Positions 41,600-62,032 of a DNA stretch of 64,000 nt are shown in pieces. Origin of the DNA: Candidatus Falkowbacteria bacterium. Its GTDB lineage: Bacteria; Patescibacteriota; Patescibacteriia; XYB2-FULL-38-15. Both the position numbers and the translations under genes were made by a program. The DNA is taken from positions 67,150-131,149 of the forward strand of contig JACRNW010000001.1 in NCBI GenBank assembly GCA_016214745.1. Direction: 5' to 3'. A model generated the notes under the pieces. The model was not told the DNA's origin. It was given only the letters and a program-made list of their open reading frames with translations, and made no database searches. How positions within the stretch are numbered: the first letter of the stretch is position 1; each line of letters begins with the position of its first letter.

Positions 41600-41627
41600 A
41601 TATTTATACCATTATAGCATCTCACGA

Positions 41628-42574: not shown

Positions 42575-43157
42575 CGGCTGAGTGGTGCCGTCGACGCAGG
42601 AGCAACCCTCGTCGATGTCGCCGTCGCAGTCGTTGTCGATCGTGTCGCAGGATTCGGAAGCGGCCGGAGCGACGTAGCCGACGCAGACACCCCAGTAACG
42701 TCCGTCCGTGCACGTCTCGAGCCCACTCACGCAGGCCCCGAGGTCCGTCCCACAAGCTCGGGTTGCCCCGGGCGTGCAGATGCAGTCCTCATTGACGAGA
42801 CCGTTGCAGTTCTCGTCCAACGTGCCGGTGCAAACTTCCGGGGCGGGTCCGACGAAACCGGTGCAAGCGTTCCAGCGGCCCATGACGCAAGTCTGGGTTC
42901 CGCGAGAGCACTCGCCCGTGTCGTCGCCGCAGGGCTGGGCCGTACCGTTCACGCAAGAACAGCCCTCGTCCACTTCGGTGTCGCAGTCGTTGTCCAGCGT
43001 GTCACAGGTCTCGGGGGCAGGAGGCAGGAAGCCCACGCCGCCGCAGTCGGACCACTGTCCGGCTCCGAACCCGTTGTTCAAACAGGTCCGGGTCCCCATG
43101 ACGCACTCGCCGAGGTCGGTACCGCACGACTCGGAAACGCCGATGGTGCAGGTGCAC

Positions 43158-43296
43158 CCTTCGTCGATCGAGCCGTTGCAGTCGTTGTCCACGCCGTCGC
43201 AGGTCTCGGGCGAACCCGCGATCTCGCCGGCGCAGACGCCCCAGCGACCACCGCTGCAGGTCTGGGTACCACGGGCGCAAGCGCCCATGTCCGTCC
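43158..43296. repeat. 138-bp repeat, second copy
   Basis: Identical to 42437-42574. Confidence 0.8.
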
Positions 43297-44766
43297 TCCG
43301 CGAGGAGCGGATCACAGACCTCGGTGTCGGGGGCGATACCCGTGCAGTCGCTCCAGAATCCGCCAATGCAGAACTGGGCACCGAGCGTGCACTCACCCAT
43401 CTCCTCGCCGCAGAGGCGAGAAGAAGTTCCGACGCACTCGCAGCCTTCGTCGATCGTGGTGTCGCAATCGTTATCCACGCCGTCGCAGGTTTCGGAGGCG
43501 GGACCCGTGCCAAGGCACAGTCCCCAGTGACCGCCCATGCAATACTGGAGGCCGGTGGCGCAGGCGCCGATGTCCGTACCGCAGACGCGACCGTCGCCGG
43601 ACCGACATTCGCAGTCTTCGTCGATCGAGCCGTCGCAGTCGTTGTCCGAGCCGTCGCAGTACTCCGGGGTCACGACGCCGCAGGAGCCGCACGCATTGAG
43701 CAGCCCCTCGTCGACGCGACCGTCGCAGTTGTCGTCGAAACCGTTGCAGATCTCGGCCGACGGAAAGTGCTGGGGCTGACATGGGCCGTAACCCGAGTCA
43801 TCCGCCAGACAGAACATCCGACCCTCGGCACAAGCGCCGAGGAATCCCGGAATCATGCAGTCGATCGGCAGGCCGGTGTGATCGCAGGCGCAGCTCTCGT
43901 CGACTCGTCCGTCGCAGTTGTCGTCCACGCGGTTGCCGCAGACTTCCGGATTCTCATCCGGCCGAGTCGTGGGCTCGCAGACGTCGGAGTAACCCGATCC
44001 GTCCGCGAGACACCGCATCTCGCCGACCGCGCAGACGCCGGGAATGAGGGTGTTGCAGGGAATGACGTCGCCCAGGGGGCAAACGCCCTCGCCGCACACA
44101 CCGTCTTCGTCGGTCTCGCCGTCGCAATCGTTGTCCACGCCGTCGCAGGTCTCGGTCGTGCCGGCGCAATCCGGCGTGCCGGCGCAGTGGCCGGTCTCGT
44201 CGCAGTACATGCCGAGCGAACAGTCGATGAACGCATTGCAGATCGCGCGGCACTCGCCGCGGAAGCACTCTCCGACTTCGCAGTCGGAGTCCGAGGTACA
44301 CTCGTACCCCGCGTAGAAGGTGGTGCCCCCGCCGCCGCAGCCGAAGCTCGCGGCGCCGAGCACCGTGGTACACACGCACACCAAGATCCAGTTCGTCCAG
44401 TTCCTCATGTTCTCCCTTTCCATCTTCCTGTCCCTCCTCTTGTGCGGTGGAGCCGCACGCGGCAGATCCGCCGCCAAAAACCGAACTACCAACGTCAATA
44501 CCGTGCCTTGTTTACGGCACGGCAAACTCCTCCGCACGGATGTGCGAAGGAGAGATTACCAAAATTCCTAATTGTCAACGAACAGCAGTTTTTGACCTTT
44601 TATCTTTATTTCACAACAAGAAAGAGGGTTTTTATCCCCCTCCTTCTCGGTCAAAAACCGCACACTATAATTTAACATAAACTACAAATTTGTCAAGAGG
44701 ATAAAACAAAAACAGAGGATTTGACCCCTGCTTTGTTAAAACGTTTTATTCTTTATTTTTTTACTG

Positions 44767-45892: not shown

Positions 45893-45915
45893 GGTTTTTA
45901 ATTTTAATATTAAAT

Positions 45916-45940
45916 TATTTTGGTGGAGATGGCGGGAATT
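45916..45940. repeat. 25-nt direct duplicate of the tmRNA 3' end (tattttggtggagatggcgggaatt)
   Basis: Identical to 46081-46105. Lies ~165 bp downstream of the intact tmRNA 3' end. Confidence 0.7.
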
Positions 45941-46085
45941 TCACTGCTCGCTCACTTCGTTCACTGCGCTTTAAAACTCTGCGGTTTTAATATTTCCGCG
46001 AACGGAAACCTTACGGTTTCCGACCCTTCCCTGGTTCAATTCCCTATCTCAGATAACAAACTATTTTTTAATTTCTAATTTATTT

Positions 46086-46469
46086 TGGTGGAGATGGCGG
46101 GAATTGAACCCGCGTCTAGAAGTCTTCGACAAAACGAATCTACAAGTTTAGCTAAATTAAATTTTTAAAACACAAGGTATAAATTTAGCAAAATCCTTGT
46201 GCCCGAGGCCTATTAATTTTCAAAAATTTCTCTAAGCCAAAGAAATTTTCTATCTCGGTTATGACACCGGGACCCGCCTACCGAGAGTCGGCGGCCGATG
46301 TGCCGCGGCTAGTTAAGCCGTGGCAGGAGCAAAGCTCGGAACGCGAAAAGCGCTCTTTACCTTGTTAAATAAGTTTGCACTTATTGATTTTGCCAAAGTT
46401 TTGCGAGATTGTGGCAATACTCGACTTGCTCATTTTGTAAAGAACTCCTATCGAGGCCTGTCATCCCCA
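46086..46469 (-). ncRNA. ssrA: tmRNA (transfer-messenger RNA)
   Basis: 3' end ...GACGCGGGTTCAATTCCCGCCATCTCCACCA (T-arm plus acceptor with encoded CCA). A candidate 5' end GGGGATGACAGGCCTCGATAGG pairs with the 3' acceptor strand. Directly follows smpB. About 384 nt. I could not resolve the tag reading frame. Confidence 0.6.
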
Positions 46470-50916: not shown

Positions 50917-51654
50917 ATGCCTACAAGTTATGTAAAAATTTTAAAAAATGAATGGCGCACAATTTTTTTCATTACCGGCGGAGCTTTGGCGTTAGCTTTA
51001 ATTTTAAGTTTAATCCAGCCATTCCAATACAGCGCCAAAACAAGAATGCTCGTGATCCCTTCCGGCGGCGGGCTTGATGCTTACAGCGCCCTGAAGTCGG
51101 CGGAAGCAATCGGTGAAAATATCGCCCAAGTAATTTACACTACTTCTTTTTTTGACAAAGTTATCCAGGACAATTCAAGTATCCAAAATATCTGGAGTAC
51201 TGATGAAACAAAAAAAAGAAAACAATGGGAAAAAATGATTAAAGCCGAAGTGCTTTATGGGACGGGCATGATTGACATCACGGTCTATCACAAAGACAAA
51301 GCTCAAGCAACTATGCTTGCCTCAACCATTGCCAACGTCTTGTCAAAGGAAGGCCGTAATTATTTTGGTATGCCGGGGCTTCAAATTATCATGGTTTCTT
51401 CGCCCCTACTTTCCAAATACCCGGTTAAGCCAAACATCCTTTTGAATATCTTTATGGGCCTGCTCCTCGGACTTTTAGGCGGCATAACTTTCGCCATTCT
51501 CACTTTTCATCCGGCTATGCGGGGAGAAGCTCCTCCGAGACCGATAAAAGTGGCTGAACCTCCAATGCATTTTCGACCCGAAGAAAAAGAGGAAAGAAAA
51601 ATAAGTGAGGAGCGGGAAATTATCAGCATGCACAACCATTATAATAAACATTAA
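50917..51654 (+). CDS. Wzz/YveK-like polysaccharide chain-length determinant N-terminal domain protein
   Basis: Two TM helices bracket a periplasmic-type domain (...QPFQYSAKTRMLV...). Confidence 0.4.
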   Translation: MPTSYVKILKNEWRTIFFITGGALALALILSLIQPFQYSAKTRMLVIPSGGGLDAYSALKSAEAIGENIAQVIYTTSFFDKVIQDNSSIQNIWSTDETKKRKQWEKMIKAEVLYGTGMIDITVYHKDKAQATMLASTIANVLSKEGRNYFGMPGLQIIMVSSPLLSKYPVKPNILLNIFMGLLLGLLGGITFAILTFHPAMRGEAPPRPIKVAEPPMHFRPEEKEERKISEEREIISMHNHYNKH

Positions 51655-51690
51655 AATTAAAAATAAATAAAATTTTCAATTTTAAAAACT

Positions 51691-51732
51691 CTGTCAACCT
51701 CCCTTGACAGATTTTTTATTTTGTGGTATAGT
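51691..51732 (+). promoter_or_regulatory. near-consensus sigma-70 promoter (TTGACA-17-TGgTATAGT) overlapping the perfect palindrome CTGTCAAcctcccTTGACAG
   Basis: -35 at 51704-51709, extended -10 at 51724-51732. The 7-bp inverted repeat arms span 51691-51710. Confidence 0.55.
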
Positions 51733-52265
51733 TAAATGTCTGATAAAAATAGTTCGTTTTAAACTAAAGGCAAATTGCGTTTTTCCGCTTGAATAAAGGC
51801 CTTTATAGATCCCCGAAGCTGTTTGGCTTGGCAAATTTTAGTGGTAATTGGCTTATATTGAGAAGCCAGATTTACCCTCGTTCTTTATCAATCACCAGGC
51901 CAAACGACTCTGGGGTTCTATGGCAGTACTTTTGCGGCGAACCACAGTTTAAAGAGTAAAAGTTATAAAAAAGTTGAAATGATAGAGAGTGCTTTCTACA
52001 TTAGTCCACTTCTCTTAAACTGCGGTTTCCTGCAAAGGATGGTACTTTGACAAATTGAATAACAACGGGCTTTAGCTCTCCGCCGACGAAGCGGATTGAT
52101 GCGCGCCTGATGAAATAGAGGGATAAAATCCTCTTTCTCAGGCTTAGGCCTGTTGACGATATATAAAACAAAACCCCCGGAGCGTGGTTGTTCCGGAGGT
52201 TACAAGTTTGGACACCATAACCGGCTTCGCGAGACGCGGGGCCAACGAAGGGAAGGAGTTCCTAG

Positions 52266-53090
52266 ATGACGAAGACCTTCGCGACGATGTTCGTGTTCGC
52301 GATGCTCTGCGTCCCGGCGATCGCCGAGGCGCAGCAGCAACTGGCCGATGGCGAGGCGCGTGCGCTCGTTTGCGGACCCGGAGAAATCCAGGTCTGCACC
52401 GAGACGCAGGCCGACGGCTCGGCTCCCCGGGTCATGTACCTGAGGGGAAGCCCGGTCATCGACTGCGTAGTTCGTTCCGAGACCGGAATCCAGCTCGAAT
52501 GTGTGAAATGGGAAGACGCCTGCAAGCGGGAATCCTGCGACAGGCGCGGCGGAAACTGGCACTGGGATGAGAGCTCGTGTCACTGCGACTACGAACGGCC
52601 GAGGGAAAGCCCTCCGCCGTCCGCGCCGCCAGCTCAGCCTCCGGGCCCGACGACGCCTCCGGTTCAACCCGGCCCGACGCCGACCTGCCCGGACTGCAAC
52701 GTGAGCCTCACGGTCTGTCCGAACGAGGAGATCGCGAGACTCGCGAACGAGCTTGCGCCTCTGGCGCAGGTCGCTCCCGAGACCTGGATCGTCCGGTCCG
52801 ACACGGATGAACTGAGGACGCGAGTCCTCTACATCCGCGATCGGGCGGCGGTGTGCGGCGAAGATAGAATCTTCGTCGACGCCGAGCGAGTACTGGCGGC
52901 AATGACGCCGCCGGAACCGAGTACGCTCCCATCGGGACCGCCGATGTCGAGCTACGAGGACGAGGAGAACTTCTGCACCAATTCGTTCGGCGGCGTACTG
53001 GTGTGCATCGTGCTGCCGACCGTGGCGGCCGGTGCCGCCATCTTCCTCGGTGTCTGGTTTGGCACCGAGTGGGAAGCGACCCAGGAGTAG
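52266..53090 (+). CDS. secreted Cys-containing Pro-rich protein with a C-terminal TM anchor
   Basis: GGAAGGAG RBS. Signal peptide MTKTFATMFVFAMLCVPAIAEA. PPPSAPPAQPPGPTTPPVQPGPTP linker. C-terminal TM helix. Confidence 0.55.
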   Translation: MTKTFATMFVFAMLCVPAIAEAQQQLADGEARALVCGPGEIQVCTETQADGSAPRVMYLRGSPVIDCVVRSETGIQLECVKWEDACKRESCDRRGGNWHWDESSCHCDYERPRESPPPSAPPAQPPGPTTPPVQPGPTPTCPDCNVSLTVCPNEEIARLANELAPLAQVAPETWIVRSDTDELRTRVLYIRDRAAVCGEDRIFVDAERVLAAMTPPEPSTLPSGPPMSSYEDEENFCTNSFGGVLVCIVLPTVAAGAAIFLGVWFGTEWEATQE

Positions 53091-53172
53091 TGTTCGTCAA
53101 CCCGGGGTCGGCGAGGCGGAAGCCCGTCGACCCCACAGAAGCTTCTGCCCCGAGAGGGCAGGGAGGGATGAG

Positions 53173-54183
53173 ATGAAGAACGTGAACCTGTTCGGGCTGT
53201 TCGTGTGCGTGATGGTGCTGGCGTCCTGTCAGGACGTCCAGCTCCCCGATCCGATCCACGTGTGTGAGGACAGCAACAACGACGACGTTTGCGACGGCGA
53301 CCAGGACGGCGATTCCGTCCCCTGGCAGTACGACAACTGCCCGCGGGCCGACAACCCCGACCAGGCCGACTGCGACGGCGACGGGATCGGCGACGCCTGC
53401 GACGACTTCGACAACCGGGATGCCGGCGCCGATGCGGACGCGGATGCGGATGCGGATGCGGATGCGGACGACTACGAGGGCGACGAGCCCGGCGAGTGTA
53501 CGGACGACGCGGACAACGACCGCGATGGTCGCTTCGACTGCGACGACCCGGGCTGCGTGAGCGATCCGGCGTGCGTCGCGGCTCCGTTCTGCGGCGATCA
53601 CGCCTGCAACGACAGCGAGACCTGCGCGAGCTGCCCGGCCGACTGCGGCATCTGCTCGGCAACCTGCGGCGACTGGGTATGCAACGGTTCCGAGACGTGC
53701 GCGACCTGCGCTCACGACTGCGGCACCTGCCCGGCGCCGATCTGCGGTGACGGCATGTGCAACGGCACCGAAACCTGCGAGACGTGCGCGTCCGACTGCA
53801 CCGGTTGCGCCGGCGACATCTTCGTCACGATCCGCGTGACCTCGTCTGACGCCTACCCCGCCGAAATTCATGTCTACTTCGCCGCTGATCCCCGGGATGT
53901 GGATGGCACCGACTCGGGCATGGCTCCCTACCAGACCAGTTTGACCCAGGCTCAGGCCTGCGGCCGAGTGGAAGGGGTGGAGGTCAGCGCCCGTCAGTTC
54001 TCGACGGCCGACCGCCCGTGGTACGGAACGCTCGGGATCCTAGGTCGTCTGACGATCCAGGTGAACGGCGTCGCCTACCCGGATGCGGCTGCTGGTCGTG
54101 CGGCTCTGCCGCTGATCGACCAGCCGTGGGGCGACCCCAACATCCATATCTCCCGGGCAGTTCTCCACTGCCCCGGTTCGTAG
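53173..54183 (+). CDS. lipoprotein with thrombospondin type-3 Ca-binding repeats and four CGDxxCNGxETCxxCxxDCGxC Cys-rich repeats
   Basis: Start MKNVNLFGLFVCVMVLASC (LASC lipobox). DGDQDGDSVPWQYDNCPRADNPDQADCDGDGIGDACD is a TSP3 repeat. Contains a (DA)n tract. Confidence 0.62.
   Translation: MKNVNLFGLFVCVMVLASCQDVQLPDPIHVCEDSNNDDVCDGDQDGDSVPWQYDNCPRADNPDQADCDGDGIGDACDDFDNRDAGADADADADADADADDYEGDEPGECTDDADNDRDGRFDCDDPGCVSDPACVAAPFCGDHACNDSETCASCPADCGICSATCGDWVCNGSETCATCAHDCGTCPAPICGDGMCNGTETCETCASDCTGCAGDIFVTIRVTSSDAYPAEIHVYFAADPRDVDGTDSGMAPYQTSLTQAQACGRVEGVEVSARQFSTADRPWYGTLGILGRLTIQVNGVAYPDAAAGRAALPLIDQPWGDPNIHISRAVLHCPGS
53431..53472. repeat. hexanucleotide microsatellite (GATGCG/GACGCG)x7 encoding (DA)n
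   Basis: gatgcggacgcggatgcggatgcggatgcggatgcggacgac. Confidence 0.85.
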
Positions 54184-54295
54184 ACCAACCAACAACTTAC
54201 CTGTTTAGTCCCTTGTCCCGACGCAAGTCGGAACAATAACAGGCAAGTCCAACAACCACAGACGCGACCTAGGGCGGTTGCGACTGCTTCGACAA

Positions 54296-54333
54296 GGCCA
54301 GCTTTCCTCCGGATTGCTGGCCTTCTTTTTTTA
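54296..54333 (+). terminator. rho-independent terminator
   Basis: GGCCAGCtttcctccggattGCTGGCC then TTCTTTTTTTATT. Confidence 0.6.
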
Positions 54334-54452
54334 TTATCAAGCGAGTGAGACCCCGGCAAGGCGGGACGAGCGAGCGCAGATAACACGGAGTATTTAAAAG
54401 TAATATTTTTAATTTAATCTCGTTTTAATACAAACTGGCCAAAACCAGTGTT

Positions 54453-54494
54453 TTGTCACACAACCTTGACAAATCCGGCATTCCGTTGTAATCT
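54453..54494 (+). promoter_or_regulatory. sigma-70-type promoter (TTGACA-17-TAATCT) overlapping the palindrome TTGTCAcacaaccTTGACAA
   Basis: -35 at 54466-54471. A second hairpin CTGGccaaaaCCAG sits just upstream. Confidence 0.45.
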
Positions 54495-54592
54495 ATAATG
54501 TTAGTTCATTGAACAACCCTTGCCGCAAGGCGAGGTAAAAATATAGTAAGTAGTTCACCTAAACTAAACATGCCGTCAAGGAGGGAAACAAG

Positions 54593-56311
54593 ATGGCAGA
54601 GAAGAAGAGTGGTGGCCTGCACTCTCCGATCGACGGCCGGCTAATCGCCGGGCGTTACAAGGTCGTAGATCCCGAACCTATCGGCCGGGGCGGCATGGGT
54701 CTCGTCTATCGCGGTTTCGACATCCGCACGAAGAGATCCGTTGCCATCAAGATTCTGCACGAGCAGTTCCACGGTATGCCCGACGTGGTTGCTCGGTTCC
54801 GCACGGAAACCGATGCGGTGAACCGTGTCGGCCACGAAGGCATTGTTGTCATCCTGGACTGTGCCCAGCCGGAAGAAACTCCGGTCTTCTTCGTCATGGA
54901 GTACCTGGACGGGAAAACGCTCGCCCAAGTGCTCGACGAGAATGGCCAGAGAGGCAAGCCGCTTCACGTCCAGCACATCCGCTACATCGGCTTGAAGCTT
55001 CTCGAGACGCTGGAAGCGGTCCACGAAAGCGGAATTATCCATCGCGACCTGAAGCCGGAAAACGTCTTCATCCTCGGGCTGCTAAGCAAGCGATATCGCG
55101 TCAAGCTTCTCGACTTCGGGATCGCGAAGTTCAAGGAAGCCGATCCCAAGCTGACTCAGGTGGGCACGATAGTGGGCACGCCCCTTTACATGTCACCTGA
55201 ACAGTGTCGGGGCCTCCCCGTCGACTACCGAACCGACCTCTACGCGATCGGCTGCATCCTCTACGAGATGGCAACCGGCCGACCGCCTTTCGTGGGCGAC
55301 CTGAGCGAAGTCCAACAGGGTCACCTCTCTCGTCTCCCGGAAGCTCCGAACGATCTGAACGGGGAAATCCCTCCGGCGCTCAACGCGGTCATCATGACGG
55401 CACTAGCTAAGGAACCGGACAACCGATTCCGCGACGCCGAAACCATGCGCGAAGCGCTCGAAGACGCCGTCCCCGAGGACAAGATGTTCTGGCGGGACAG
55501 CCGGCCGCCTTCGCCGGTGAACGGCAGCAGGGTGCTCGCCACTCCGCCGCGCATTCCAACCGCGATGGAGGATCAGCCAACGTCAGAGCGGCTCGACTCG
55601 TCTAAAACCCCGACTCGTCTGCTCGCTGACAAGCGGCCGCCGGCCGGGATCGCCTTGGCGAAAACCATGACTCCGGCTGACCTGAAACGGGCAGTTGATG
55701 AGGAGACGGCGCACCAGTTCGCCAAGAACTTCGGCGTCTGGATCCTGAAGCCCTCGAGTCGGGCGGCAGTGATCGCGATCGGCAGTACCCTCCTCATCCT
55801 CACCATCGTGTTCGTTCTTCTCGCGGCTTACCCGCCCAACACCGGCAAGCGCGCAAGAACGGCCGACGCTGGCGTCGAGGTCAGCACGACGGCGGTTGTC
55901 GTTTCCGAGAAGGAAACTCCTCCGCAGCCGAGCGGCCAGCCCGACGTCATCGTCCTGCCAGTTCCGGTTCCAGTTCCTCGGGACGACGCGACAACCGACG
56001 AGCCGAACGAAGTCGTCGAGATGGACGCAGTAGAAACTGCGGCCAACGCTGGCCCACCGGACGGCTACGCCGAACTACTCGCGGCGGCGGAACACGCCAG
56101 GAACTGGCGCACGGCCGTCGGAAGACTCGAGGAGGCAACAGAACTCTGGCCTGAAGGACCAGATGCCTGGAAAGAACTGGGCAACGTCTTCATGATGCAT
56201 GGGGAAATTCGGAAGGCCAGAGAAGCCTTCCGGACATGCCTCGACCTTCTGCCTCCGGACGCGTTCGTCCAGCGGGCACAAGTGGAGGGACGACTCAGGG
56301 GCCTGCAATAG
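54593..56311 (+). CDS. Hanks-type serine/threonine protein kinase with a C-terminal TM segment and a TPR-like tail
   Basis: GGAGGG RBS. GRGGMGLVYRG (P-loop), VAIK, HRDLKPENVFI, DFGIAKF, GTPLYMSPEQ. A TM helix near residue 400. Confidence 0.85.
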   Translation: MAEKKSGGLHSPIDGRLIAGRYKVVDPEPIGRGGMGLVYRGFDIRTKRSVAIKILHEQFHGMPDVVARFRTETDAVNRVGHEGIVVILDCAQPEETPVFFVMEYLDGKTLAQVLDENGQRGKPLHVQHIRYIGLKLLETLEAVHESGIIHRDLKPENVFILGLLSKRYRVKLLDFGIAKFKEADPKLTQVGTIVGTPLYMSPEQCRGLPVDYRTDLYAIGCILYEMATGRPPFVGDLSEVQQGHLSRLPEAPNDLNGEIPPALNAVIMTALAKEPDNRFRDAETMREALEDAVPEDKMFWRDSRPPSPVNGSRVLATPPRIPTAMEDQPTSERLDSSKTPTRLLADKRPPAGIALAKTMTPADLKRAVDEETAHQFAKNFGVWILKPSSRAAVIAIGSTLLILTIVFVLLAAYPPNTGKRARTADAGVEVSTTAVVVSEKETPPQPSGQPDVIVLPVPVPVPRDDATTDEPNEVVEMDAVETAANAGPPDGYAELLAAAEHARNWRTAVGRLEEATELWPEGPDAWKELGNVFMMHGEIRKAREAFRTCLDLLPPDAFVQRAQVEGRLRGLQ

Positions 56312-56316
56312 GCCCT

Positions 56317-56368
56317 GGGGCAACCACGCAAGATGTCAAACATCAAGCGTGGCTGCCCCTCTTTTTTA
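56317..56368 (+). terminator. rho-independent terminator
   Basis: GGGGCAaccacgcaagatgtcaaacatcaagcgtggcTGCCCC then TCTTTTTTATTTT. Confidence 0.6.
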
Positions 56369-56383
56369 TTTTATAAAAAAACC

Positions 56384-56412
56384 TTGACAAAAAAATACTT
56401 TTGTGGTTAGAT
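56384..56412 (+). promoter_or_regulatory. putative promoter (CCTTGACA-17-TTAGAT)
   Basis: -35 TTGACA at 56384-56389. The -10 is weak. Confidence 0.35.
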
Positions 56413-56474
56413 ATAAAGTGCTCTAAATGGGCGCAAGGGGGAGGCACGGGGCCTCCCTTAGATTTTAGGAGGGA

Positions 56475-57563
56475 ATGGAGATGAGGTTCATCACCCTGAT
56501 CGTGGCGGTTCTTTTCGCCCAGAACGCGTTTGCCCAGACGTCGGAGTCGACCGAGCAGACGGAGCAGTCCGCTGCGCCGGTCATCCTCGGCGAAGCCGGC
56601 AACGCGGCTCTCACGAGCTGCCTCGAAGCGGACGACGGGACCCAGTGCTGCACCGACTACGGCGACTGCGTGCAGAATTTGGGAGACAACTCCGAGCAGT
56701 GCGCTGCGGTCGCCCGACTGTGCGGGCACCAGGATCTCGACGCCGCCATGCGGGAAGGCTGCCAGCAGCGGAACGCGATCGTACAGGGCAGCGAATGCGC
56801 CTGCGCCGCGGGCTTGAGCTGGAACAACGAAAGCGACAAGGTTTGCTGCACAGCAAACCCCGCCACCTACGAACGCCGGCGAAACGCCTGCGAGCATTCC
56901 GGCGGAACCTACCACTGCAACAGCCGGGGCGGATGGTGCGGCTGCCCACTCGGCATGAGCCACCCGATCGAAGAGGATGGCGATGTCGACTACTCCTCCT
57001 GCACCGGCGAAGCGGTGAACCGCGAACGGCTCCAGGCGATGCGAGACAACATCGCGACTCTTACTGCCGAGGTCGAGGAAGCCGGACAACAGATCGCCGC
57101 CCTCCAAGCCGAGCGTGACGCCCTTCGAGCGCAGCTCGACCAGACTCTCAGTCAGCTGGCCGAGCTGGACAACCTCGAGGACACGGTCGGCGAGATGGAA
57201 CAACGGCTCGCCGAGATGGATGCCGAACTCTCGTTCTTGCGTCACCTGCGCGACCAGTACGAGGAATTCATCGCTCGGCAGGCGCAGACGATCGCCGATC
57301 TTGGCGGAATTCCTCCTCTCCCTCCGGGCATTCCGGAAGAGGATGAACCCCTCCCGGGAACAGCGGCGGCGGTCGCGGAAGCGGCAGGCGGAAGCCGGCC
57401 CGGACCGATGGAGCCACTACCCCCTCCCGAAGAGGAAGAGGGCAACTGGTGCTCCGAAAACGGCTGGGCATGCGCCGGTATCATCATCGGCGCAGCAGCC
57501 GCATTGGCCGGGGCAACCGTCGGGATCGTGGAGGCGACCCGCGACATTCAGGTCACTCAGTAG
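56475..57563 (+). CDS. secreted Cys-rich protein with a long coiled coil and a C-terminal TM anchor
   Basis: Signal peptide MEMRFITLIVAVLFAQNAFA. 16 Cys in the N-terminal domain. Heptad-like region LQAMRDNIATLTAEVEEAGQQIAALQAERDALRAQLDQ... C-terminal GIIIGAAAALAGATVGIV. Confidence 0.55.
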   Translation: MEMRFITLIVAVLFAQNAFAQTSESTEQTEQSAAPVILGEAGNAALTSCLEADDGTQCCTDYGDCVQNLGDNSEQCAAVARLCGHQDLDAAMREGCQQRNAIVQGSECACAAGLSWNNESDKVCCTANPATYERRRNACEHSGGTYHCNSRGGWCGCPLGMSHPIEEDGDVDYSSCTGEAVNRERLQAMRDNIATLTAEVEEAGQQIAALQAERDALRAQLDQTLSQLAELDNLEDTVGEMEQRLAEMDAELSFLRHLRDQYEEFIARQAQTIADLGGIPPLPPGIPEEDEPLPGTAAAVAEAAGGSRPGPMEPLPPPEEEEGNWCSENGWACAGIIIGAAAALAGATVGIVEATRDIQVTQ

Positions 57564-57592
57564 TTCTCGGGATTTCCTCCACCCGAGGACCA

Positions 57593-57641
57593 GGCCGACG
57601 TTTTGAGACAATCGTGTCTCGGACGTCGGCCTTTTTTTATC
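57593..57641 (+). terminator. rho-independent terminator
   Basis: GGCCGACGttttgagacaatcgtgtctcggaCGTCGGCC then TTTTTTTT. Confidence 0.65.
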
Positions 57642-57642
57642 T

Positions 57643-57684
57643 GTCAACTCCCCTTGACAAAACTTAAAAAATATGGTATATTTA
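57643..57684 (+). promoter_or_regulatory. sigma-70-type promoter (TTGACA-17-TATATT) overlapping the palindrome CTGTCAActccccTTGACAa
   Basis: -35 at 57656-57661, -10 at 57679-57684. The element closely matches the 51691 element. Confidence 0.5.
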
Positions 57685-57877
57685 CTTGTTCTGAAACGAA
57701 TGGAAAACAGTATCTACATAAACAAAATTGGATCCTGTAGTAGTTTGGTTTGATACCTGGGTTGCCTCCTCCTCAACCTCTTGGTTTTCAAATCAAACTA
57801 CTCAAGGACCCAACAAAATTGGTCCAAGCAACTCGGGATGGGTCCCGGGTTGAGAGAGTTTGGAAAGGAAAGCGCTG

Positions 57878-58984
57878 ATGGCGAATGGCAACAAGGTCTC
57901 AAGCTCCCTCCAGATTACCGGCCTGAAGCCCGACATCACGGAAGAGAAAATCCGTAGGGCTGTCGGCGAAATCGTCGGAGTGGGGCAGGACGGGATCTCC
58001 AACGTGGATATCCGGCGACGCGAAGATGGCAGGCCCGAGGAGCGAGGCGCGAATGCCGTCGTCGCCTTCAAGGATGTCGCAACGGCGACGGTGGCGAAGG
58101 CGGGACTTGGCGCAGGCAAGCTGTGCAGAATCCCCGACCTGAATCCCGACCGCGAGATCATGGCCGACTTCTACTTTCCTCCGCGGCCGCGCGACGAGAG
58201 GCCGCCGGCCACACCCCCACCCGCCGCACCCTCGATCGATCCGAACCAGCTTACGGCCATTGTGGCCGAACTCGAGGCCAGGCTCAAGGCCGACGCCGGA
58301 TTTCTGGCGAAGGTCAGGGGCAAGGACGGCGTAGCGCCGACGAAGGACGAGATCGTCGCGGCCCTCCGGTCCTTCCTGGTCACCGACCTCAAGGCTGCTC
58401 TGGCCCCGGTGCTGAAGGTTGACCTCAAGAACGACCCGACCTTCCAGGACCTGATCAAGGGCACTCCCGGCAAGGACGGCCCCGCGAAGGATGAAGTCAT
58501 CGCGGCGCTCAAGGCCGACGCCTCCTTCAAGGCGGAAGTCAAGGGCGAGAAGGGCGATGACGCACCCCGGTGGCCTCACTGGGTCTTGGTGGTTTTTGCC
58601 ACCTTGGCGTTCATCGTCATGCTCGGCCACCTCGTCTGCGGAAGCAGCGGCGACCAGGGTCCGCAGGGCGTCCAGGGCCAGGTCGGTCCCCAAGGTCCGC
58701 AAGGGCCCAAGGGCCCGATCGGACCGCGTGGTCCCGAAGGCTCCCAGGGTCCGCAGGGCGAACCCGGAGCCGCGGCGACCACAACGGTCGCACCGGCGCC
58801 GAGCGCGGAGCCGCCCGTCGAACCGGCGGCCACGGCGCCGCCCAGCCAGGCAACGCCGACGGGACGGCCCAACATCACGGAAGTGGATGGGCGCGAGCTC
58901 ATCCGCCACCAGCTGGACGACGTGTCCGTCCTATTCCGTGAGATCGATCGGAGGACCCGGCAACTGGAGGAAGCGCGCCAGTAG
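57878..58984 (+). CDS. membrane-anchored collagen-like (13 x G-X-Y) protein with GKDG...DEIVAAL repeats
   Basis: ATG at 57878 (MANGNK). TM helix [59 protein letters not shown]. Repeated GKDG(V/P)A(P/K)(T)KDE(I/V)(V/I)AAL(R/K) units resemble phage tail-fibre-like repeats. Confidence 0.58.
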
Positions 58985-59010
58985 ACGCGAAGGAGTATCT
59001 ACTGATCCAT

Positions 59011-59061
59011 GGGCGGACGACGTGAGGTGAAGAACCAAACGTCGTCCGCCCGCTTTTTTTA
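59011..59061 (+). terminator. rho-independent terminator closing island 2
   Basis: GGGCGGACGACGtgaggtgaagaaccaaACGTCGTCCGCCC then GCTTTTTTTAT. Confidence 0.65.
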
Positions 59062-59111
59062 TATCAAAAAACGGGCAATGCGCCCGCTTTATATTTTTAA
59101 TCTTCAAACCT

Positions 59112-59504
59112 CTAAATTCCCAACTCTTTCTTTAATTTTTCATAATCATTTTTTGCTTTCTCAAATTCTTCTTCCACTGCGGCCCGATTTCCACCTTTTA
59201 AAAATCCTAAAAACCGACTTAAGAGACTATTGTATTCTTTCAAATTTTTTTCCGCTTTGGCTAGCCGGTATTTGGCAAATTCCAATTTTGCTTTTTGCTC
59301 GTCAGTTAAAACGGAAATAACTGGCGCGGCGTTCGCCTCTACAACCGGTTTAATTCCCGCGGCGGACAAACGGTCTTCCACGGCTTTAATTAGTCGGCTA
59401 GACACTTGATCCAAAAATATTTTTATATTTGGATCCCGGATAACGGTTTGCGCAGTTTGTAAAATTTGATCGGCCATAAAGGGTCTATTCTTTGTTGACG
59501 GCAC
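59112..59504 (-). CDS. hypothetical protein (low GC)
   Basis: 130 aa. No motif recognised. Confidence 0.4.
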   Translation of the reverse strand: MPSTKNRPFMADQILQTAQTVIRDPNIKIFLDQVSSRLIKAVEDRLSAAGIKPVVEANAAPVISVLTDEQKAKLEFAKYRLAKAEKNLKEYNSLLSRFLGFLKGGNRAAVEEEFEKAKNDYEKLKKELGI

Positions 59505-59527: not shown

Positions 59528-62032
59528 TTAAATTCCGTATTTTTTTCTTTCTCTTTGTTCAACGGATTTTATTATCGGCTCAAGTTCTTCTCTGGCCTTC
59601 GCTTCTAACTCCCCCCTGCTCTTTCCTTTATAATCCGGACTTTCTCCAAACTTTTTTACCAACTCGGAAAAAATTCTTCTTCGCTCGTCCGCCAAGGTTT
59701 GCCTGATTATCCGTTCAGTCTCTCTTTTTTTGGCCTCTTCGGGTGTTCTTAATTTTTCTACGGACGGTGCGGCAACCTTAACTTCTTTTTTTGCCGGAGG
59801 TATGATCTCCTCTTTTTTCTCCGCCGATTTTGGGGGTAAAATTATTTCATCCGGCTCAAAAAATCCAAAATAAAATTCTCCACCGCCGTATTTTTGCACG
59901 TCTCTTCCGCCCGGCTTTTTCAAAGTAAGATAAAGTTTCTGGCCGGCTTCAAAATTTTTAGGGACGCTGCGAACAATAACTTTTTTATTATCTGGCGTTA
60001 TAGCCCCCCAATCTCCCTGGGGCGATTTTTCGACAGCCACCCTTATCCGCCGCGGCTCATTATCCAAAAACTTTTTTAATTCCGTTTCGGACCCAGGTTT
60101 AAAATCCGGCGCTAATCTGCCCAATAAATCTCCCAGCGTAACCGTCAATTTTTCCCCGCCCGCTAATTTCAAAAAGAGACTCTTGCGGATTAATCTTCCT
60201 TGCGGCAAACCGGCAAAAATTTTTTCGTCAAGGGTTCCTTTATTTAGGGCTACAAAAAAATTACGATTTTCCGGCGTATAACGAATTACTCCGTCATAGC
60301 CAAGACTCGCCGCGGCCCATTGGCCTTCGCCGCCGATTTTATTTTGCGTATCTACTAAAAATTTCTTGCCGTCTTTAGTGACGACAAACCAATTTTTAGC
60401 TATCAAATCACTGACATCTTCCATCGTTTGCTCTATTACCTTGCGCCGTTCGGCCACATGGTCAACAACTTCTCCGTCTTTCTTTTTATAAATTAAACCA
60501 AATCTTCTCAGGTCTTTTTCATCCAAAATATCCGTAACATCCTTGCCTGATTCGGCAAAACGCAGAAGGGTATCCAAGGTCACAAAAGGAGACTTTAAAA
60601 ATCCCAACATCATCCGGTCGGAGTCTTCAAAATATTTTTCCATATCCGGAAAGCTGAAGTTATCCGACTGCGTTACCCATTCTACGACTTTTTCATATTT
60701 TTCTTGTTCTTTTTCATCTTTAAATTTTAGCAAACCCAACTCCGTTAAAACATTATAAACATTTTTCATAGCCGAAGTGCCACGATCCGAATATGGACCG
60801 TGGTGGTCCATAACCGTAGTAATCTCACTTTTTCGCTCCCCAGTTTTGGGATCTACGGTCTCAGTAGACTCAACCACCAAACCATCTTCATTGCCAGAAT
60901 CAATCGTAACCTGACCCTGCATTTTTTCTCCCGGTGTAAGAAAACCTACTTTACTGATGTCTAATCCTGCCTTTCCCAAAAGCGCAACGGCACATTTACC
61001 ATCCAAATCGGAGTAACGCAGTAAACCTATTTGCTTTTTCTCCTTATCGTATCCAAATCTGCCATGGGTAAACAATTCCCGTGTAGCTAAAAATTTTTTG
61101 GCTGATTCGGCGACCAATTCCCTCTCCGCTCTTTCCCTCGCCTCTTCCGGCTCAATTTTTTCTTTGGCTAAAATTTCTGCCGTTCTTTTTTCCGCGTCTT
61201 CCTCTTTAATTCCCTCCCCGAGAATACTCCTAAATTCTTCCATCTGCACCTTCTGCAATCTTTCTAAGATTGGTTTGCCTTCGCCGTAAGGAAGGCTTAA
61301 AAAGTATTCCCCGAGTCCCAAAACCATTTTATCAATTTCTTCATCGCTAAATTTTTCCGGTGATTTTTTCCGGATTATCTCGTCTAAAAGTTTTTTATGC
61401 GCTTCCTTTTCTTCCGATGAAAATGAAGAAAGAAAATACTGAATATTTTTTTTGGTCAATTCACCAAGCGCGTATTCTCTTAAAATTTTTCTATACCATT
61501 CTTCCGCTGTTTGCTCTGATTTCGCACCAGTCGAGATAGTAATTCCCGGCCTTCTTACAACCTCCACATTTTTTTTCTCATCAACCCATCGCCCTTCTTT
61601 CGGTTCTCTAATTCTTTGAGTCGTAGTTCTTGTACGGGCTATTTTTGCCGGTTCTTGTTTAAGATCTGCTATATCCGCTTTTACCTCCCCCTCTCGAATA
61701 GCTTCAGCGAGTCTTTGATAAGCTTCGTATTCCTCCGCCGAAGGGAAAGTTTTTAAAAAATTAACCAGGGCTTCTTTACTTAGAATACCCTGGTCATATT
61801 TAGTTCGCAAATTAGAATATGTGGCCATTTTTTTGGCCTCTTTTTGTCTTTTCTCTTCTTCCCATTTTTCACCGCCCGCCTCTGCCAATCCCCCTTTCCA
61901 ATCTCTCGATTTTTGGGGGGATTTTTCTGACTTTTTTTCTTCTCGTTCAGCCGCTCGCCTTTCTGCGTCAAGATGAACCAATTTTCCAGATTCGGTTTCT
62001 TCTGCGGCATCTCTTCTGCGAGATTTAGCCAT
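59528..62032 (-). CDS. large Lys/Glu-rich hypothetical protein with a possible DHH-family phosphoesterase core
   Basis: RYSDLDGKCAVALLGKAG (DHH motif I-like) and VMDHHGPYSDRG (DHH motif III) in the middle of 834 aa. Weak. Confidence 0.35.
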   Translation of the reverse strand: MAKSRRRDAAEETESGKLVHLDAERRAAEREEKKSEKSPQKSRDWKGGLAEAGGEKWEEEKRQKEAKKMATYSNLRTKYDQGILSKEALVNFLKTFPSAEEYEAYQRLAEAIREGEVKADIADLKQEPAKIARTRTTTQRIREPKEGRWVDEKKNVEVVRRPGITISTGAKSEQTAEEWYRKILREYALGELTKKNIQYFLSSFSSEEKEAHKKLLDEIIRKKSPEKFSDEEIDKMVLGLGEYFLSLPYGEGKPILERLQKVQMEEFRSILGEGIKEEDAEKRTAEILAKEKIEPEEARERAERELVAESAKKFLATRELFTHGRFGYDKEKKQIGLLRYSDLDGKCAVALLGKAGLDISKVGFLTPGEKMQGQVTIDSGNEDGLVVESTETVDPKTGERKSEITTVMDHHGPYSDRGTSAMKNVYNVLTELGLLKFKDEKEQEKYEKVVEWVTQSDNFSFPDMEKYFEDSDRMMLGFLKSPFVTLDTLLRFAESGKDVTDILDEKDLRRFGLIYKKKDGEVVDHVAERRKVIEQTMEDVSDLIAKNWFVVTKDGKKFLVDTQNKIGGEGQWAAASLGYDGVIRYTPENRNFFVALNKGTLDEKIFAGLPQGRLIRKSLFLKLAGGEKLTVTLGDLLGRLAPDFKPGSETELKKFLDNEPRRIRVAVEKSPQGDWGAITPDNKKVIVRSVPKNFEAGQKLYLTLKKPGGRDVQKYGGGEFYFGFFEPDEIILPPKSAEKKEEIIPPAKKEVKVAAPSVEKLRTPEEAKKRETERIIRQTLADERRRIFSELVKKFGESPDYKGKSRGELEAKAREELEPIIKSVEQRERKKYGI

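Follow-up and report, generated by a model that had tools for sequence, protein, structure and literature searches.

Our study revealed that a GC-rich block of five genes, arranged in four transcription units at 52.2–59.0 kb of a 64,000-nt window of DNA from Candidatus Falkowbacteria, a tiny bacterium of low GC content (the window being the whole stretch analysed, with its locus designated W), is probably an old, co-regulated array of surface and signalling cassettes that has been diversified by recombination and whose GC richness is maintained. The array is confined to a single clade of CPR bacteria related to Falkowbacteria, in which its slot is fixed, with Wzz on one side and a conserved 130-aa gene on the other. 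All features described here lie on the plus strand.

The GC content between 52 and 59 kb was 0.55–0.68 in 1-kb steps, compared to 0.36–0.43 on both sides. Taken per gene, g1 to g5 had a GC content of 0.62–0.67 and a GC3 of 0.74–0.85, compared to 0.40–0.45 and 0.36–0.50, respectively, in eight flanking genes; only the block and island 1 (41.6–44.7 kb) exceeded a GC3 of 0.62 in the window. The entire codon table was shifted, with every codon family affected (block versus genome: TTC 0.92 versus 0.19, AAG 0.82 versus 0.17, TTA 0.00 versus 0.25), and GC1 and GC2 were shifted as well, so that amino-acid usage was also altered. This confirmed the composition, the five ORFs with their coordinates and the four units given in a preliminary description of this DNA, and the per-gene GC3 and codon usage show that, in its codons, the coding DNA has a composition alien to this genome. 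The shift was uniform along the ORFs and ended at the 5′ leaders, and GC3 was unrelated to residue conservation or local variability, conserved and variable codons being alike. The spacers of the block had a GC content of 0.41–0.47, with the exception of the non-coding, 82-nt g1–g2 spacer inside one unit (0.68; 0.59–0.68 across genomes). The codons of the block were not used by the highly expressed host genes for L20 and IF3. The Big_1/invasin-type adhesin-like genes of the same window also lacked the GC-rich dialect, and surface location alone is therefore insufficient to explain it. Island 1 behaved similarly, with the same slot, the same promoter type and a GC3 of 0.78 in L099. At a distance of 5 kb from the block there is a tmRNA gene whose 3′ end is duplicated.

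Of the five products, one is a transmembrane Hanks-type kinase and the other four are secreted or anchored, with three of these four being rich in Cys; domains, TM segments and signal peptides support the membrane or surface proteins and kinase initially described. The g1 protein (52266–53090; GC3 0.80; 15 Cys) has a signal peptide, a Cys-rich, beta-rich ectodomain, a Pro-rich linker, a three-helix bundle and a C-terminal TM anchor. It is a clade-restricted orphan, as its nine matches among 1.84 billion representative proteins all came from the same clade. The g2 product (53173–54183; GC3 0.85) is a lipoprotein (lipobox VLAS|C) with 31 Cys, TSP3-like Asp-rich repeats and three CGDxxCNGxETC repeats of 72 nt each; the latter repeats were upheld, whereas the TSP_3 match, at 20.5 bits, fell below the Pfam cut-off of 25 bits. 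These two genes are co-transcribed, as judged from the GC-rich spacer that separates them without a terminator. The g3 product (54593–56311) combines a cytoplasmic Hanks-type Ser/Thr kinase (Pkinase, 1.8e-45) with one TM segment (392–410), an extracellular linker and a C-terminal TPR (TPR_16), and its catalytic K53, HRDLKPEN (150–157), DFG (174–176) and SPE motifs were invariant across 13 orthologues. The g4 product (56475–57563; GC3 0.78) has a signal peptide, a Cys-rich domain (18 Cys), a coiled coil and a C-terminal TM anchor. Finally, g5 (57878–58984; GC3 0.81) encodes a bitopic membrane protein with a cytoplasmic N-terminal region of ~230 aa, a TM segment (236–254) and an extracellular G-X-Y collagen tract. 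The term collagen-like is justified for the W allele (34.3 bits against Pfam Collagen; cut-off 27.2) and not as a general trait, as only some g5 alleles carry the tract. The ORFs, with a dN/dS of 0.2–0.8, were intact in every genome examined, except at the g2 position of L004 and L005, where no plus-strand ORF was called. Domain content and topology suggest a role in adhesion and signalling, and an interaction of the products with host cells is plausible.

The same genes were found at the same site, after PDZ-Wzz, in eight further independent assemblies, which showed the locus order SmpB-AI2E-..-PDZ-Wzz-block-130aa-834aa-PPDK or the portion of it covered by the contig; one of the eight was an 886-kb contig. 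A ninth further contig, L090, begins inside the block and agrees with these in gene order. In the distant L098 the site is occupied by other genes, also GC-rich. A chimeric assembly was ruled out, because the block recurs across independent assemblies (10 further, of which nine have the block, one partially, and L098 has different genes). The block ORFs of these relatives had a GC3 of 0.68–0.92, compared to 0.30–0.52 in their flanks, and this was similar in all lineages regardless of depth, including L098. The 12 best relatives of the kinase were full-length (93–100 % query coverage); contigs were fetched for seven of them, and each showed this GC-rich order of genes. Six of these contigs extend into the flanks; they come from Patescibacteria genomes of low GC content, in which the block lies at the matching syntenic position. 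Between the main lineages the flanks had a dS of 1.0–2.6 and a protein identity of 65–82 %, with synonymous sites largely randomized. These comparisons indicate that the block is not a recent import and that relatives have kept it at one chromosomal site.

Outside the clade, the nearest relatives of the kinase were Myxococcota (~40 % identity, catalytic domain only), as were those of the MopE-like protein of island 1 (30–45 %), and both types of gene may ultimately stem from an ancient Myxococcota-like transfer. Of the earlier attribution of the gene families to Myxococcota or Actinobacteria, the Myxococcota part holds for the nearest outside relatives of these two, and not for g1, which has none. 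No GC-rich donor reservoir was found among 5.8e9 and 1.84e9 proteins, and neither an integrase nor flanking repeats were found at the block. Three matches in viral contigs were chance matches.

As previously proposed, an AT-rich spacer with a TTGACA promoter precedes each unit, one of the four (P4) having a weaker −10. P1 (51692–51732; TTGACA from 51704) reads TTGACA-17-TATAGT with a TG extended −10 and carries a perfect palindrome, TGTCAA-N6-TTGACA, over the −35 hexamer; including its spacer it was near-identical in nine genomes. P3 with its conserved upstream element (54398–54494; TTGACA from 54466) consists of TGTCA-N7-TTGACA, 17 nt and TAATCT, and this region was 95.6 % identical between W and L092, the kinases of which were only 49 % identical. 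P4 (56384–56412; TTGACA from 56384) reads TTGACA-17-TTAGAT with a TGG extended −10, is without the upstream half-site and was conserved in seven genomes. P5 (57642–57682; TTGACA from 57654) reads TTGACA-17-TATATT and again has the perfect palindrome TGTCAA-N6-TTGACA. Every unit has kept its leader as well as its promoter conserved, and conservation of the block promoters extends through the spacer sequence. Exactly four copies of CCTTGACA occurred in the 64 kb, all in the block and on the plus strand (expected 1.15). The TGTCA-N7-TTGACA palindrome was present in three of the four block promoters and nowhere else in the window (five strand-wise matches at three sites, each an island promoter, compared to 0.05 expected), and was absent from 80 unrelated kinase loci. 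The initial view of this regulatory DNA as host-like was correct in that it is AT-rich and the promoters are sigma-70-type, resembling the host tRNA-Asp promoter. It is not generic host DNA; instead it is a scaffold peculiar to the island that is better conserved than the genes themselves and includes an operator-like palindrome and structured leader RNAs. In L002 and L093 a bAvd/23S-IVP-like gene adjoins P1.

Covariation shows that the g1 leader (51736–52265; ~530 nt) is a structured RNA with three helical domains. RNAalifold predicted 95 pairs from an alignment of eight genomes, 93 % of cells were paired compared to 34–54 % when slid, and there were 18 compensatory pairs compared to 9.8±1.9 in shuffles (0/500). 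Lineage-specific hairpin insertions occupied fixed positions in this alignment, and the leader was single copy per genome and had no Rfam match at E≤1. The kinase 5′ UTR (54495–54592) contains a hairpin whose pairing is kept while its sequence differs between lineages. The g5 leader hairpin (57728–57813; 33 pairs) has an invariant apical loop, CCUCCUCCU, and a core invariant in seven genomes; compensatory changes affected six hairpin pairs, and seven of the 38 pairs predicted for the region as a whole. The strong terminator described for each unit was also recovered as four intrinsic hairpins with runs of six or seven T (z −5.0 to −7.6), none of which was equalled by any of 200 shuffles: after g1–g2 (54294–54332; dG −20.9 kcal/mol, z −5.8, T7), after the kinase (56317–56367; −29.5, z −5.0, T6), after g4 (57592–57638; −29, z −6.2, T7) and after g5 (59011–59060; −33.8, z −7.6, T7), the last forming the downstream border of the block. 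There was none after g1. Across genomes the place of the terminators was conserved and the stems differed, as seen for the kinase terminator in nine of nine genomes; the position of the g1–g2 terminator was conserved in six further genomes.

The ORFs themselves evolve in a mode different from that of the rest of the genome. Between W and L092 the flanks had a protein identity of 91–97 %, a dS of 0.22–0.34 and a dN of ~0.02, whereas island proteins were 47–56 % identical, with a dS of 0.66–1.57 and a dN of 0.39–0.50; by blastn the promoters were 92–96 % identical and the ORF cores ~65 % or unalignable. Cassette phylogenies conflicted with the flanks, and identity matrices were incongruent, with the W kinase grouping with L002/L093 and the L092 kinase with L091/L005, while g1 paired otherwise. 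L002 and L093 shared 87 % identity in their kinases and only 39–40 % in g1 and g2. Within genes pS was mosaic (0.54–0.68 compared to 0.06–0.19 in one kinase). These patterns show that recombination between lineages replaces alleles, whole or in part, on a nearly unchanged regulatory scaffold, so that each cassette has its own history.

At flank fourfold sites the S/W state had decayed to exp(−lt) = 0.35–0.46, and passive decay from a 100 %-GC ancestor is therefore capped at a GC4 of 0.68–0.77, compared to 0.70–0.81 observed. It is unlikely, if still worth some weight, that the block goes back to one ancient acquisition from a donor of very high GC content (e.g. Myxococcota), followed only by slow passive amelioration with no maintaining force, its hypervariability being due to recombination and relaxed or diversifying selection. 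The Myxococcota affinities of the kinase and MopE agree with this, as does a kinase GC4 (0.70–0.77) that is near the decay maximum and exceeds it only marginally; however, g2, g4b and g5, with a GC3 of 0.80–0.92, are well over the bound. Polarized synonymous changes gave an apparent GC→AT excess in the island (GC→AT:AT→GC 64:16 and 39:12, flanks balanced), which could reflect slow decay, but the excess is largely inside the artefact range of parsimony, which gave 1.6–2.8:1 at stationarity in simulation. Nor would passive decay leave lineages of any depth, L098 included, equal in GC3, and as island dS is at least that of the flanks, decay should be faster, not slower. The absence of non-clade relatives of g1 also counts against this reading. 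We infer that an active force maintains the GC richness, which would then not be the fading trace of an import. This force is most likely a GC-favouring fixation bias tied to frequent recombination (biased gene conversion), although the more variable parts do not have a higher GC3, and whole-cassette replacement through the spacers would form no heteroduplex inside the ORFs.

The alternative force, unlikely and slightly more so than the passive-decay reading, is a selected codon dialect, in which selection retains GC-rich mRNA or codons ending in G or C (tRNA-pool or modification gating, mRNA stability); were it true, the array would be a separately translated regulon. The shift of all codon families, its uniformity along the ORFs, its end at the leaders and the likeness of all lineages are consistent with this, and a fixation bias of 4Nes ~2 (calculated from GC3 0.4 versus 0.8) would suffice. 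However, the equally GC-rich non-coding g1–g2 spacer and the shifted GC1, GC2 and amino-acid usage point to pressure at the nucleotide rather than the codon level, L20 and IF3 do without these codons, and selection alone leaves the raised, mosaic dS unexplained. Repeated cassette import at a hot spot from an unsampled GC-rich reservoir (partner organism, plasmid or phage) would fit cassette histories incongruent with the flanks, the different genes of L098 and the nearby tmRNA gene. We consider it very unlikely, given the lack of a reservoir among the 5.8e9 and 1.84e9 proteins, of any close non-clade kinase or g1 match, of an integrase and of flanking repeats, the chance nature of the viral-contig matches, and conserved AT-rich inter-cassette spacers, which are unexpected under whole-block import. 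Highly improbable, too, is hypermutation directed at the ORFs by a local mutator, DGR-like or other, whose spectrum is biased towards GC: ORF dS and dN are both raised and a bAvd-like gene adjoins P1 in two loci, but the window and most loci lack that gene, no template/variable repeat pair was found, GC3 is independent of local variability, and the long divergent blocks with sharp dS changes are those expected of recombination tracts. The preliminary description had seen imported genes of families typical of Myxococcota or Actinobacteria in host-like regulatory DNA, which corresponds to recent transfer from these groups with host promoters and terminators gained later, and had itself named best homologues from other low-GC CPR genomes of the same composition as evidence to the contrary. 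Those are what we found, all best homologues being clade members. Despite foreign codon usage and domain families common in Myxococcota, this scarcely credible reading is refuted by them and by synteny in nine further assemblies (one partial), with flank dS above 1 between the main lineages and promoters and leaders conserved across genomes.

In the favoured reading of an old, maintained array, a single dimeric regulator would bind the palindrome and so co-regulate the units, and the leaders would add post-transcriptional control; in the g5 leader, the ribosome-binding site could be masked by the CCUCCUCCU loop. The proteins would make up a variable set for recognition and signalling at the cell surface, on which phages or partner cells exert diversifying pressure.

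Our study revealed that the GC-rich block at ~52.2–59.0 kb of the window is a fixed-slot array of four units, in which a conserved scaffold of promoters, leaders (the RNA between promoter and ORF) and terminators carries ORFs that have been diversified by recombination and are GC-rich in all lineages. The five plus-strand ORFs proposed in the preliminary description were all found (g1, 52266–53090; g2, 53173–54183; the kinase gene g3, 54593–56311; g4, 56475–57563; g5, 57878–58984), with g1 and g2 sharing one unit. The compositional break was also recovered, with 1 kb windows at a GC content of 0.55–0.68 between 52 and 59 kb compared to 0.36–0.43 outside. The ORFs had GC values of 0.62–0.67 and GC3 values of 0.74–0.85, against 0.40–0.45 and 0.36–0.50 in eight flanking genes, and within the 64 kb window GC3 exceeded 0.62 only here and in island 1, the other GC-rich block, at 41.6–44.7 kb. 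The entire codon table of the island ORFs was shifted (island versus rest: TTC 0.92 and 0.19, AAG 0.82 and 0.17, TTA 0.00 and 0.25, ATA 0.01 and 0.18, AGA 0.05 and 0.33), as was amino acid usage, with Cys at 3.6 % compared to 0.3 %. By this atypical base and codon makeup the block has the composition of an acquired genomic island. The low-GC spacers that had been described were present (GC 0.41–0.47), bar the 82 nt g1–g2 spacer, which is non-coding, lies inside one transcription unit and has a GC content of 0.68. Because the whole codon table and the amino acids are shifted, the effect is uniform over codons (GC3 was equal at invariant and variable ones) and this spacer is GC-rich, the shift suggests a force at the nucleotide level that is not confined to codons. 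The equal GC3 also led us to reject the hypervariable segments as the driver of GC enrichment.

Surface location alone fails to explain the GC-rich dialect, because the Big_1/invasin-type genes of the window have ordinary GC3 (0.45–0.53): genes of the adhesin run (5629–29289, minus strand) had GC values of 0.48–0.53, with raised GC2 and a GC3 of 0.45–0.54. This run holds large adhesin-like genes with Big_1, Invasin_D3 and Big_5 domains at 8.2–23.5 kb, a subtilase with FG-GAP repeats at 5629–7848 (minus strand) and two large ORFs (12415–15054 and 25480–29289) in which no Pfam domain was found. Island 1 (41600–44700, minus strand; GC3 0.78) resembles the main block in promoter type, GC-rich makeup and syntenic conservation. 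Its MopE-related Cys-repeat lipoprotein is split over three ORFs that overlap, and a perfect 141 nt direct repeat lies in the island (42435–42575 and 43156–43296); the ORF break and repeat may stem from a frameshift or from collapse during assembly. In assembly L099 the same L20–rSAM slot has an intact 667 aa orthologue, behind a promoter nearly identical to that of the window (44696, minus strand).

The block is old and syntenic, and is not a recent import. The flanks in the window encode L20, IF3, SmpB, tmRNA, an AI-2E-type transporter, a PDZ protein, a Wzz-like protein and tRNA-Asp, and the gene order is SmpB, AI-2E, two to three small genes (one DUF5656-like), PDZ, Wzz, the block (g1, g2, kinase, g4, in some relatives g4b, and g5), a 130 aa protein, an 834 aa protein and PPDK. 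Assemblies of relatives were taken from NCBI, JGI, ENA and Logan, one of them an 886 kb contig, and this order, or the part of it covered by the contig, was found in seven further independent assemblies, L099, found via island 1, being an eighth. One contig (L090) begins inside the block and has the same gene order. In all relatives the block has a GC3 of 0.68–0.92, the flanks have a GC3 of 0.30–0.52 and the spacers are AT-rich; since this pattern recurs in every independent assembly, a chimeric assembly, which the preliminary description had considered, is excluded. That description had also held that homologues of like composition in low-GC relatives would speak against its proposal of imported foreign genes, and since the block is syntenic with the same GC pattern in all relatives, recent import is not borne out: the best homologues lie within the clade, at the same site and with the same composition.

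The 12 best kinase relatives by BLASTP were full-length (93–100 % of the query covered, 39–62 % identity); three were labelled Patescibacteria, no other organism was named, and the contigs fetched for seven were all of the same kind. The next matches down the list were from Myxococcota, covering the catalytic domain alone at ~40 % identity. Gene families typical of Myxococcota had been proposed for the block, and this stands in so far as, outside the clade, the kinase and the island 1 MopE-like protein have their nearest relatives in Myxococcota, but not for the best kinase homologues, which are within the clade. The kinase and MopE-like genes may derive from an ancient transfer. Among 1.84 billion representative proteins g1 had only nine relatives, all with the same architecture and two of them identical to proteins in the studied loci. 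A metagenome scan with the kinase alignment and generic HRDLKPE-type patterns returned ordinary kinases only (33–42 % identity) and no orthologous loci, and a search of genome contigs with the PDZ protein returned a single unrelated Leucothrix locus. Homologue searches with g5 gave collagen G-X-Y matches over 5–44 % of the query, which are uninformative on its distribution.

The block qualifies neither as a classical genomic island nor as a diversity-generating retroelement (DGR) target or an integron. It shares with the islands described by Lawrence and Ochman a sharp compositional break, foreign codon usage and interaction-function genes, but it has no integrase or att repeat, occupies the same site in all relatives and has not converged on the composition of its host despite saturating synonymous divergence. 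Rather than showing patchy presence and donor-lineage homologues, it is found in all eight assemblies that reach the flanks. No integrase or mobility genes were present among the called neighbours, no flanking direct repeats were found around the block, and the tmRNA gene lies 5 kb away with six conserved genes between, which is not the arrangement of a tRNA/tmRNA insertion. A 39 nt copy of the tmRNA 3′ end (87 % identical) lies 165 nt from that gene (45902–45940 and 46067–46105) and looks like an att-type scar of past integration. As regards a DGR, no template/variable repeat pair involves the block, and this reading is therefore rejected; no reverse transcriptase was found among the neighbours, and a bAvd-like gene lies by P1, the promoter of the g1–g2 unit, in L002 and L093 only. 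This small, low-GC 23S_rRNA_IVP/bAvd-like gene sits between Wzz and P1 (L002:5541–5912; L093:1432–1830); another lies at the far end of the GC-rich block of a distant genome, L098 (14101–14475), and the window has none. Integron cassettes were rejected, as there is no integrase and no unit lacks a promoter or a terminator of its own. In L098, which has a flank GC3 of ~0.5, the same post-PDZ/Wzz site (L098:6261–13958) holds other GC-rich, Cys-rich genes, encoding a coiled-coil protein and three MopE-like proteins (GC3 0.79–0.82) with ccTTGACAaaa-type promoters. The site thus seems to be one dedicated to GC-rich, Cys-rich surface genes.

Comparison of the window with L092, another locus of the clade, revealed the extent of divergence within the slot. 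Flank proteins were 91–97 % identical (dS 0.22–0.34, dN ~0.02), whereas island proteins were 47–56 % identical (dS 0.66–1.57, dN 0.39–0.50); at the nucleotide level, flanks and promoters were each 92–96 % and leaders ~82 % identical, with ORF cores at ~65 % or unalignable. Identity matrices conflicted with the flanks and among themselves. The kinase of the window was nearest to those of L002 and L093 (64–66 %) and that of L092 to those of L091 and L005 (57–66 %), while g1 paired L091 with L002 and L092 with L093. The kinases of L002 and L093 were 87 % identical with a dS of 0.36, compared to a flank dS of 0.94, and their g1 and g2 proteins were only 39–40 % identical. Mosaicism was also seen within genes, as pS between the L004 and L007 kinases was 0.54–0.68 over codons 1–150 and 0.06–0.19 over codons 300–420, with comparable blocks in the L002–L093 pair and in g5. 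Imported recombination tracts, comprising whole cassettes and parts of cassettes, give this pattern. Since divergence is mosaic and the histories are incongruent, recombination, and not selection alone or a point mutator, is indicated. We rejected divergence that tracks exposure (extracellular over cytoplasmic), as the mosaic differs between pairs and does not follow membrane topology. The dN/dS of the island was 0.2–0.8 compared to 0.02–0.2 in the flanks, and its ORFs were intact in every genome studied, the sole exception being g2, for which L004 and L005 gave no plus-strand call.

A hypervariable surface locus with allele exchange has conserved flanks around central alleles that are deeply divergent, with incongruent phylogenies and atypical GC, and all of these features were found here. 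The closest analogy, in mechanism only and with unrelated gene content, is with the rfb (O-antigen) loci of Enterobacteria and the cps (capsule) loci of Streptococcus. Such loci keep to one chromosomal position, with conserved genes on either side, and their divergent central alleles, which encode surface determinants under diversifying selection and have a persistently atypical base composition, are swapped by recombination in the flanks. The block shares the fixed slot, the deeply divergent, exchangeable alleles and the persistent atypical GC; atypical GC in O-antigen clusters has been discussed (PMC3715488). It differs in encoding a kinase and anchored Cys-rich proteins rather than polysaccharide enzymes, and in that its composition deviates towards high GC in a low-GC genome, the reverse sign. 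Furthermore, its conserved scaffold also runs between the genes, so that single cassettes and cassette parts are exchanged, and this scaffold holds structured RNAs.

Promoters with a TTGACA −35 box, a 17 nt spacer and a TAnnnT −10 box had been proposed before every unit. All four predicted sites were present and of sigma-70 type by sequence (P1, P3, P4 and P5, before the g1–g2, kinase, g4 and g5 units, near 51691, 54453, 56384 and 57643). P1, P3 and P5 conform to the description throughout, while P4 has a weaker −10 box, TTAGAT, with a TGG extension. The sequence CCTTGACA occurs in exactly four copies in the 64 kb, all in the block and on the plus strand, and the promoters are conserved across all genomes, spacer sequence included. 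A stretch of ~70 nt upstream of P3 shows conservation as well. TGTCA-N7-TTGACA was found at P1, P3 and P5, forming a perfect TGTCAA-N6-TTGACA palindrome at P1 and P5. This motif has three sites in the window (five strand-wise matches, compared to 0.05 expected), all at island promoters; in the other loci it was found at orthologous promoters only, and it was absent from 80 unrelated kinase loci. We infer that the palindrome is a putative operator of a dimeric regulator, through which the units would be co-regulated. The four hairpin terminators claimed earlier (54296, 56317, 57593 and 59011) were confirmed as predicted intrinsic (Rho-independent) terminators from sequence and fold, with ΔG values of −20.9 to −33.8 kcal/mol, z-scores of −5.0 to −7.6 and a following T6–T7; none of 200 shuffles was as stable, and no terminator was found after g1. 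Their positions are constant in all genomes and their stem sequences differ.

The block holds several conserved, previously undescribed RNA elements, here predicted. The ~530 nt leader from P1 to g1 is single-copy and has long invariant blocks, with hairpins inserted at fixed positions in particular lineages. The consensus fold comprises 95 pairs, with 93 % of cells paired compared to 34–54 % when partners were slid, and 18 compensatory pairs compared to 9.8±1.9 in shuffles (0 of 500 reaching this number) and two to eight in slid controls. A hairpin in the g5 leader has 33 predicted pairs, six with compensatory changes (seven if all 38 pairs predicted for the region are counted), and its apical CCUCCUCCU loop is invariant and anti-SD-like. 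Rfam 15 matched only tmRNA and tRNA in the window at the gathering threshold, and nothing at E≤1 in 51600–59200, leaders included. These leaders may add post-transcriptional control. The 5′ UTR of g4 (56413–56474) bears a hairpin, GGGAGGC-N4-GCCTCCC, that is kept with small variations in five of seven genomes, a different hairpin taking its position in L004 and L007; it carries SD-like and anti-SD-like sequences immediately upstream of the real ribosome-binding site. An 18-mer of the leader had three matches in viral contigs, all by chance and inside low-GC phage genes.

The protein assignments of the preliminary description were largely upheld. In the secreted Cys/Pro-rich g1 product, a signal peptide is accompanied by 15 Cys, a Pro-rich linker and an anchoring TM segment at the C terminus; a structure model of moderate confidence (pLDDT 68) matched nothing in the PDB (best E 2.7). 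The g2 product is a lipoprotein with 31 Cys and three CGDxxCNGxETC repeats, and its visibly Asp-rich, thrombospondin type 3-like repeats score below the PF02412 cut-off (20.5 versus 25 bits, E 3.8e-4). The g4 product carries 18 Cys and a coiled coil in addition to a signal peptide, and its TM anchor is C-terminal. The g3 product, which has an identical NCBI record (MBI5071391.1, Candidatus Falkowbacteria MAG), is a Hanks-type Ser/Thr kinase with a TM segment and also a TPR domain: it scored 155.9 bits against PF00069 (cut-off 31.7, E 1.8e-45, residues 28–280), and K53, H150–N157 (HRDLKPEN), D174–G176 (DFG) and S201-P202-E203 were invariant in 13 orthologues. It scored under every NCBIfam equivalog cut-off and was rejected as a Stk1/PknB PASTA kinase (NF033483, 288.5 versus 450 bits), its C terminus being TPR and not PASTA. 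As in PknB/PknD-class kinases, a cytoplasmic kinase at the N terminus, complete in its catalytic motifs, is joined by a single TM segment to an extracellular sensor, but here the sensor is a short TPR rather than PASTA or a beta-propeller, and the gene is allelic and mosaic among close relatives. For g5, the single TM segment and the collagen tract of the proposed collagen-like membrane protein were found in the window (PF01391, 34.3 bits, cut-off 27.2, residues 255–298, with G-X-Y repeats), but the tract belongs to some alleles only. It comprises ~15 triplets, differs in position among the alleles that have it, and is absent from the orthologues of L004, L007 and L090. The streptococcal Scl1/Scl2 and Legionella Lcl proteins share with g5 a G-X-Y tract, an exposed region and membrane attachment; g5 differs in its short, allele-restricted tract and in having no LPXTG anchor, and was rejected as a family member at 22–27 bits against cut-offs of 325–500. 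A single-sequence model of g5 (pLDDT 47) was too poor for use. The sub-clade whose g5 alleles are without the tract has an extra gene, g4b, between g4 and g5 (L004:13519–14166; L007:13668–14258; L090:4583–5131; 182–215 aa, GC3 0.90–0.92); a terminator of its own follows this gene in L004 and L007, and none was found in L090. Downstream of the block, the 834 aa Lys/Glu-rich protein (59528–62032, minus strand) has no Pfam match and is conserved in L002 and L005 at 52–63 % identity.

The age of the block bears upon how its composition has persisted. Between the main lineages flank proteins are 65–82 % identical with a flank dS of 1.0–2.6, and flank fourfold sites are near random (identity 0.18–0.60, compared to 0.23–0.33 expected). 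Using the decay of strong/weak state at these sites as a clock (exp(−lt) = 0.35–0.46), passive decay, governed by the host process, from a 100 % GC ancestor would leave the island with a GC4 of at most 0.68–0.77, and from a 90 % ancestor with 0.64–0.72. The observed GC4 was 0.70–0.81 at the compared sites, and GC3 reached 0.92 in g2, g4b and g5; as these values exceed the decay ceiling, passive amelioration with no maintaining force is disfavoured, although only marginally for the kinase. Polarised synonymous changes (GC→AT:AT→GC) were 64:16 and 39:12 in the island and 61:61 and 34:37 in the flanks. The island counts resemble decay, but parsimony applied to simulated data gave an excess of similar size whether composition was stationary (1.6–2.8:1) or decaying (1.6–2.2:1). 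GC richness would be maintained by a fixation bias. Selection on GC-rich codons or mRNA is a live alternative for the maintaining force, but we favour recombination-associated biased gene conversion, because recombination within the ORFs is demonstrated, the non-coding DNA within a unit is GC-rich and a 4Nes of ~2 would suffice; this is the weakest step of our account. Reported effects of biased gene conversion in bacteria are of a few percent, genome-wide, whereas the block is a discrete locus ~40 GC3 points over its own genome. The two may be linked; in both, recombining genes are GC-enriched, mostly at third positions, and a modest fixation bias is enough. Background on recombination-associated GC enrichment in bacteria is given elsewhere (PMC2936529, PMC6867656).

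Taken together, we tentatively suggest, at rather below even confidence, that this CPR clade stably runs two compositional and codon dialects, the GC-rich one being actively maintained and dedicated to hypervariable cassettes of surface and signalling genes, and that an ultraconserved AT-rich scaffold of shared operator, new structured leader RNAs and terminators doubles as homology arms for cassette and sub-cassette exchange. The products would form a variable set for recognition and signalling at the surface, with the kinase sensing via its extracellular TPR and the others displayed through lipid or TM anchors. No description of the locus, or of GC-rich islands in Patescibacteria, was found in the searchable literature; a report of hypervariation in Gracilibacteria concerns a PTD repeat and is a different phenomenon. 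If this reading is true, GC richness is a property of the diversification system, through biased conversion or selected decoding, and not a relic of transfer. The block speaks clearly against inferring recent horizontal transfer from atypical GC as a matter of routine, as its makeup has survived saturating synonymous divergence in nine lineages or more, and binning or HGT-detection pipelines would flag or drop such regions as contamination. What maintains local base composition, gene conversion or selection, is testable at this one compact locus with the flanks as internal control. Its regulatory elements are conserved above the proteins they serve, and include the ~530 nt leader and the hairpin with the anti-SD-like loop, neither in Rfam, and the putative palindromic operator of a small regulon. 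To our knowledge, partner recognition in episymbiotic CPR bacteria is poorly understood, and the block points to a recombination-driven system of surface-protein diversity in these organisms.
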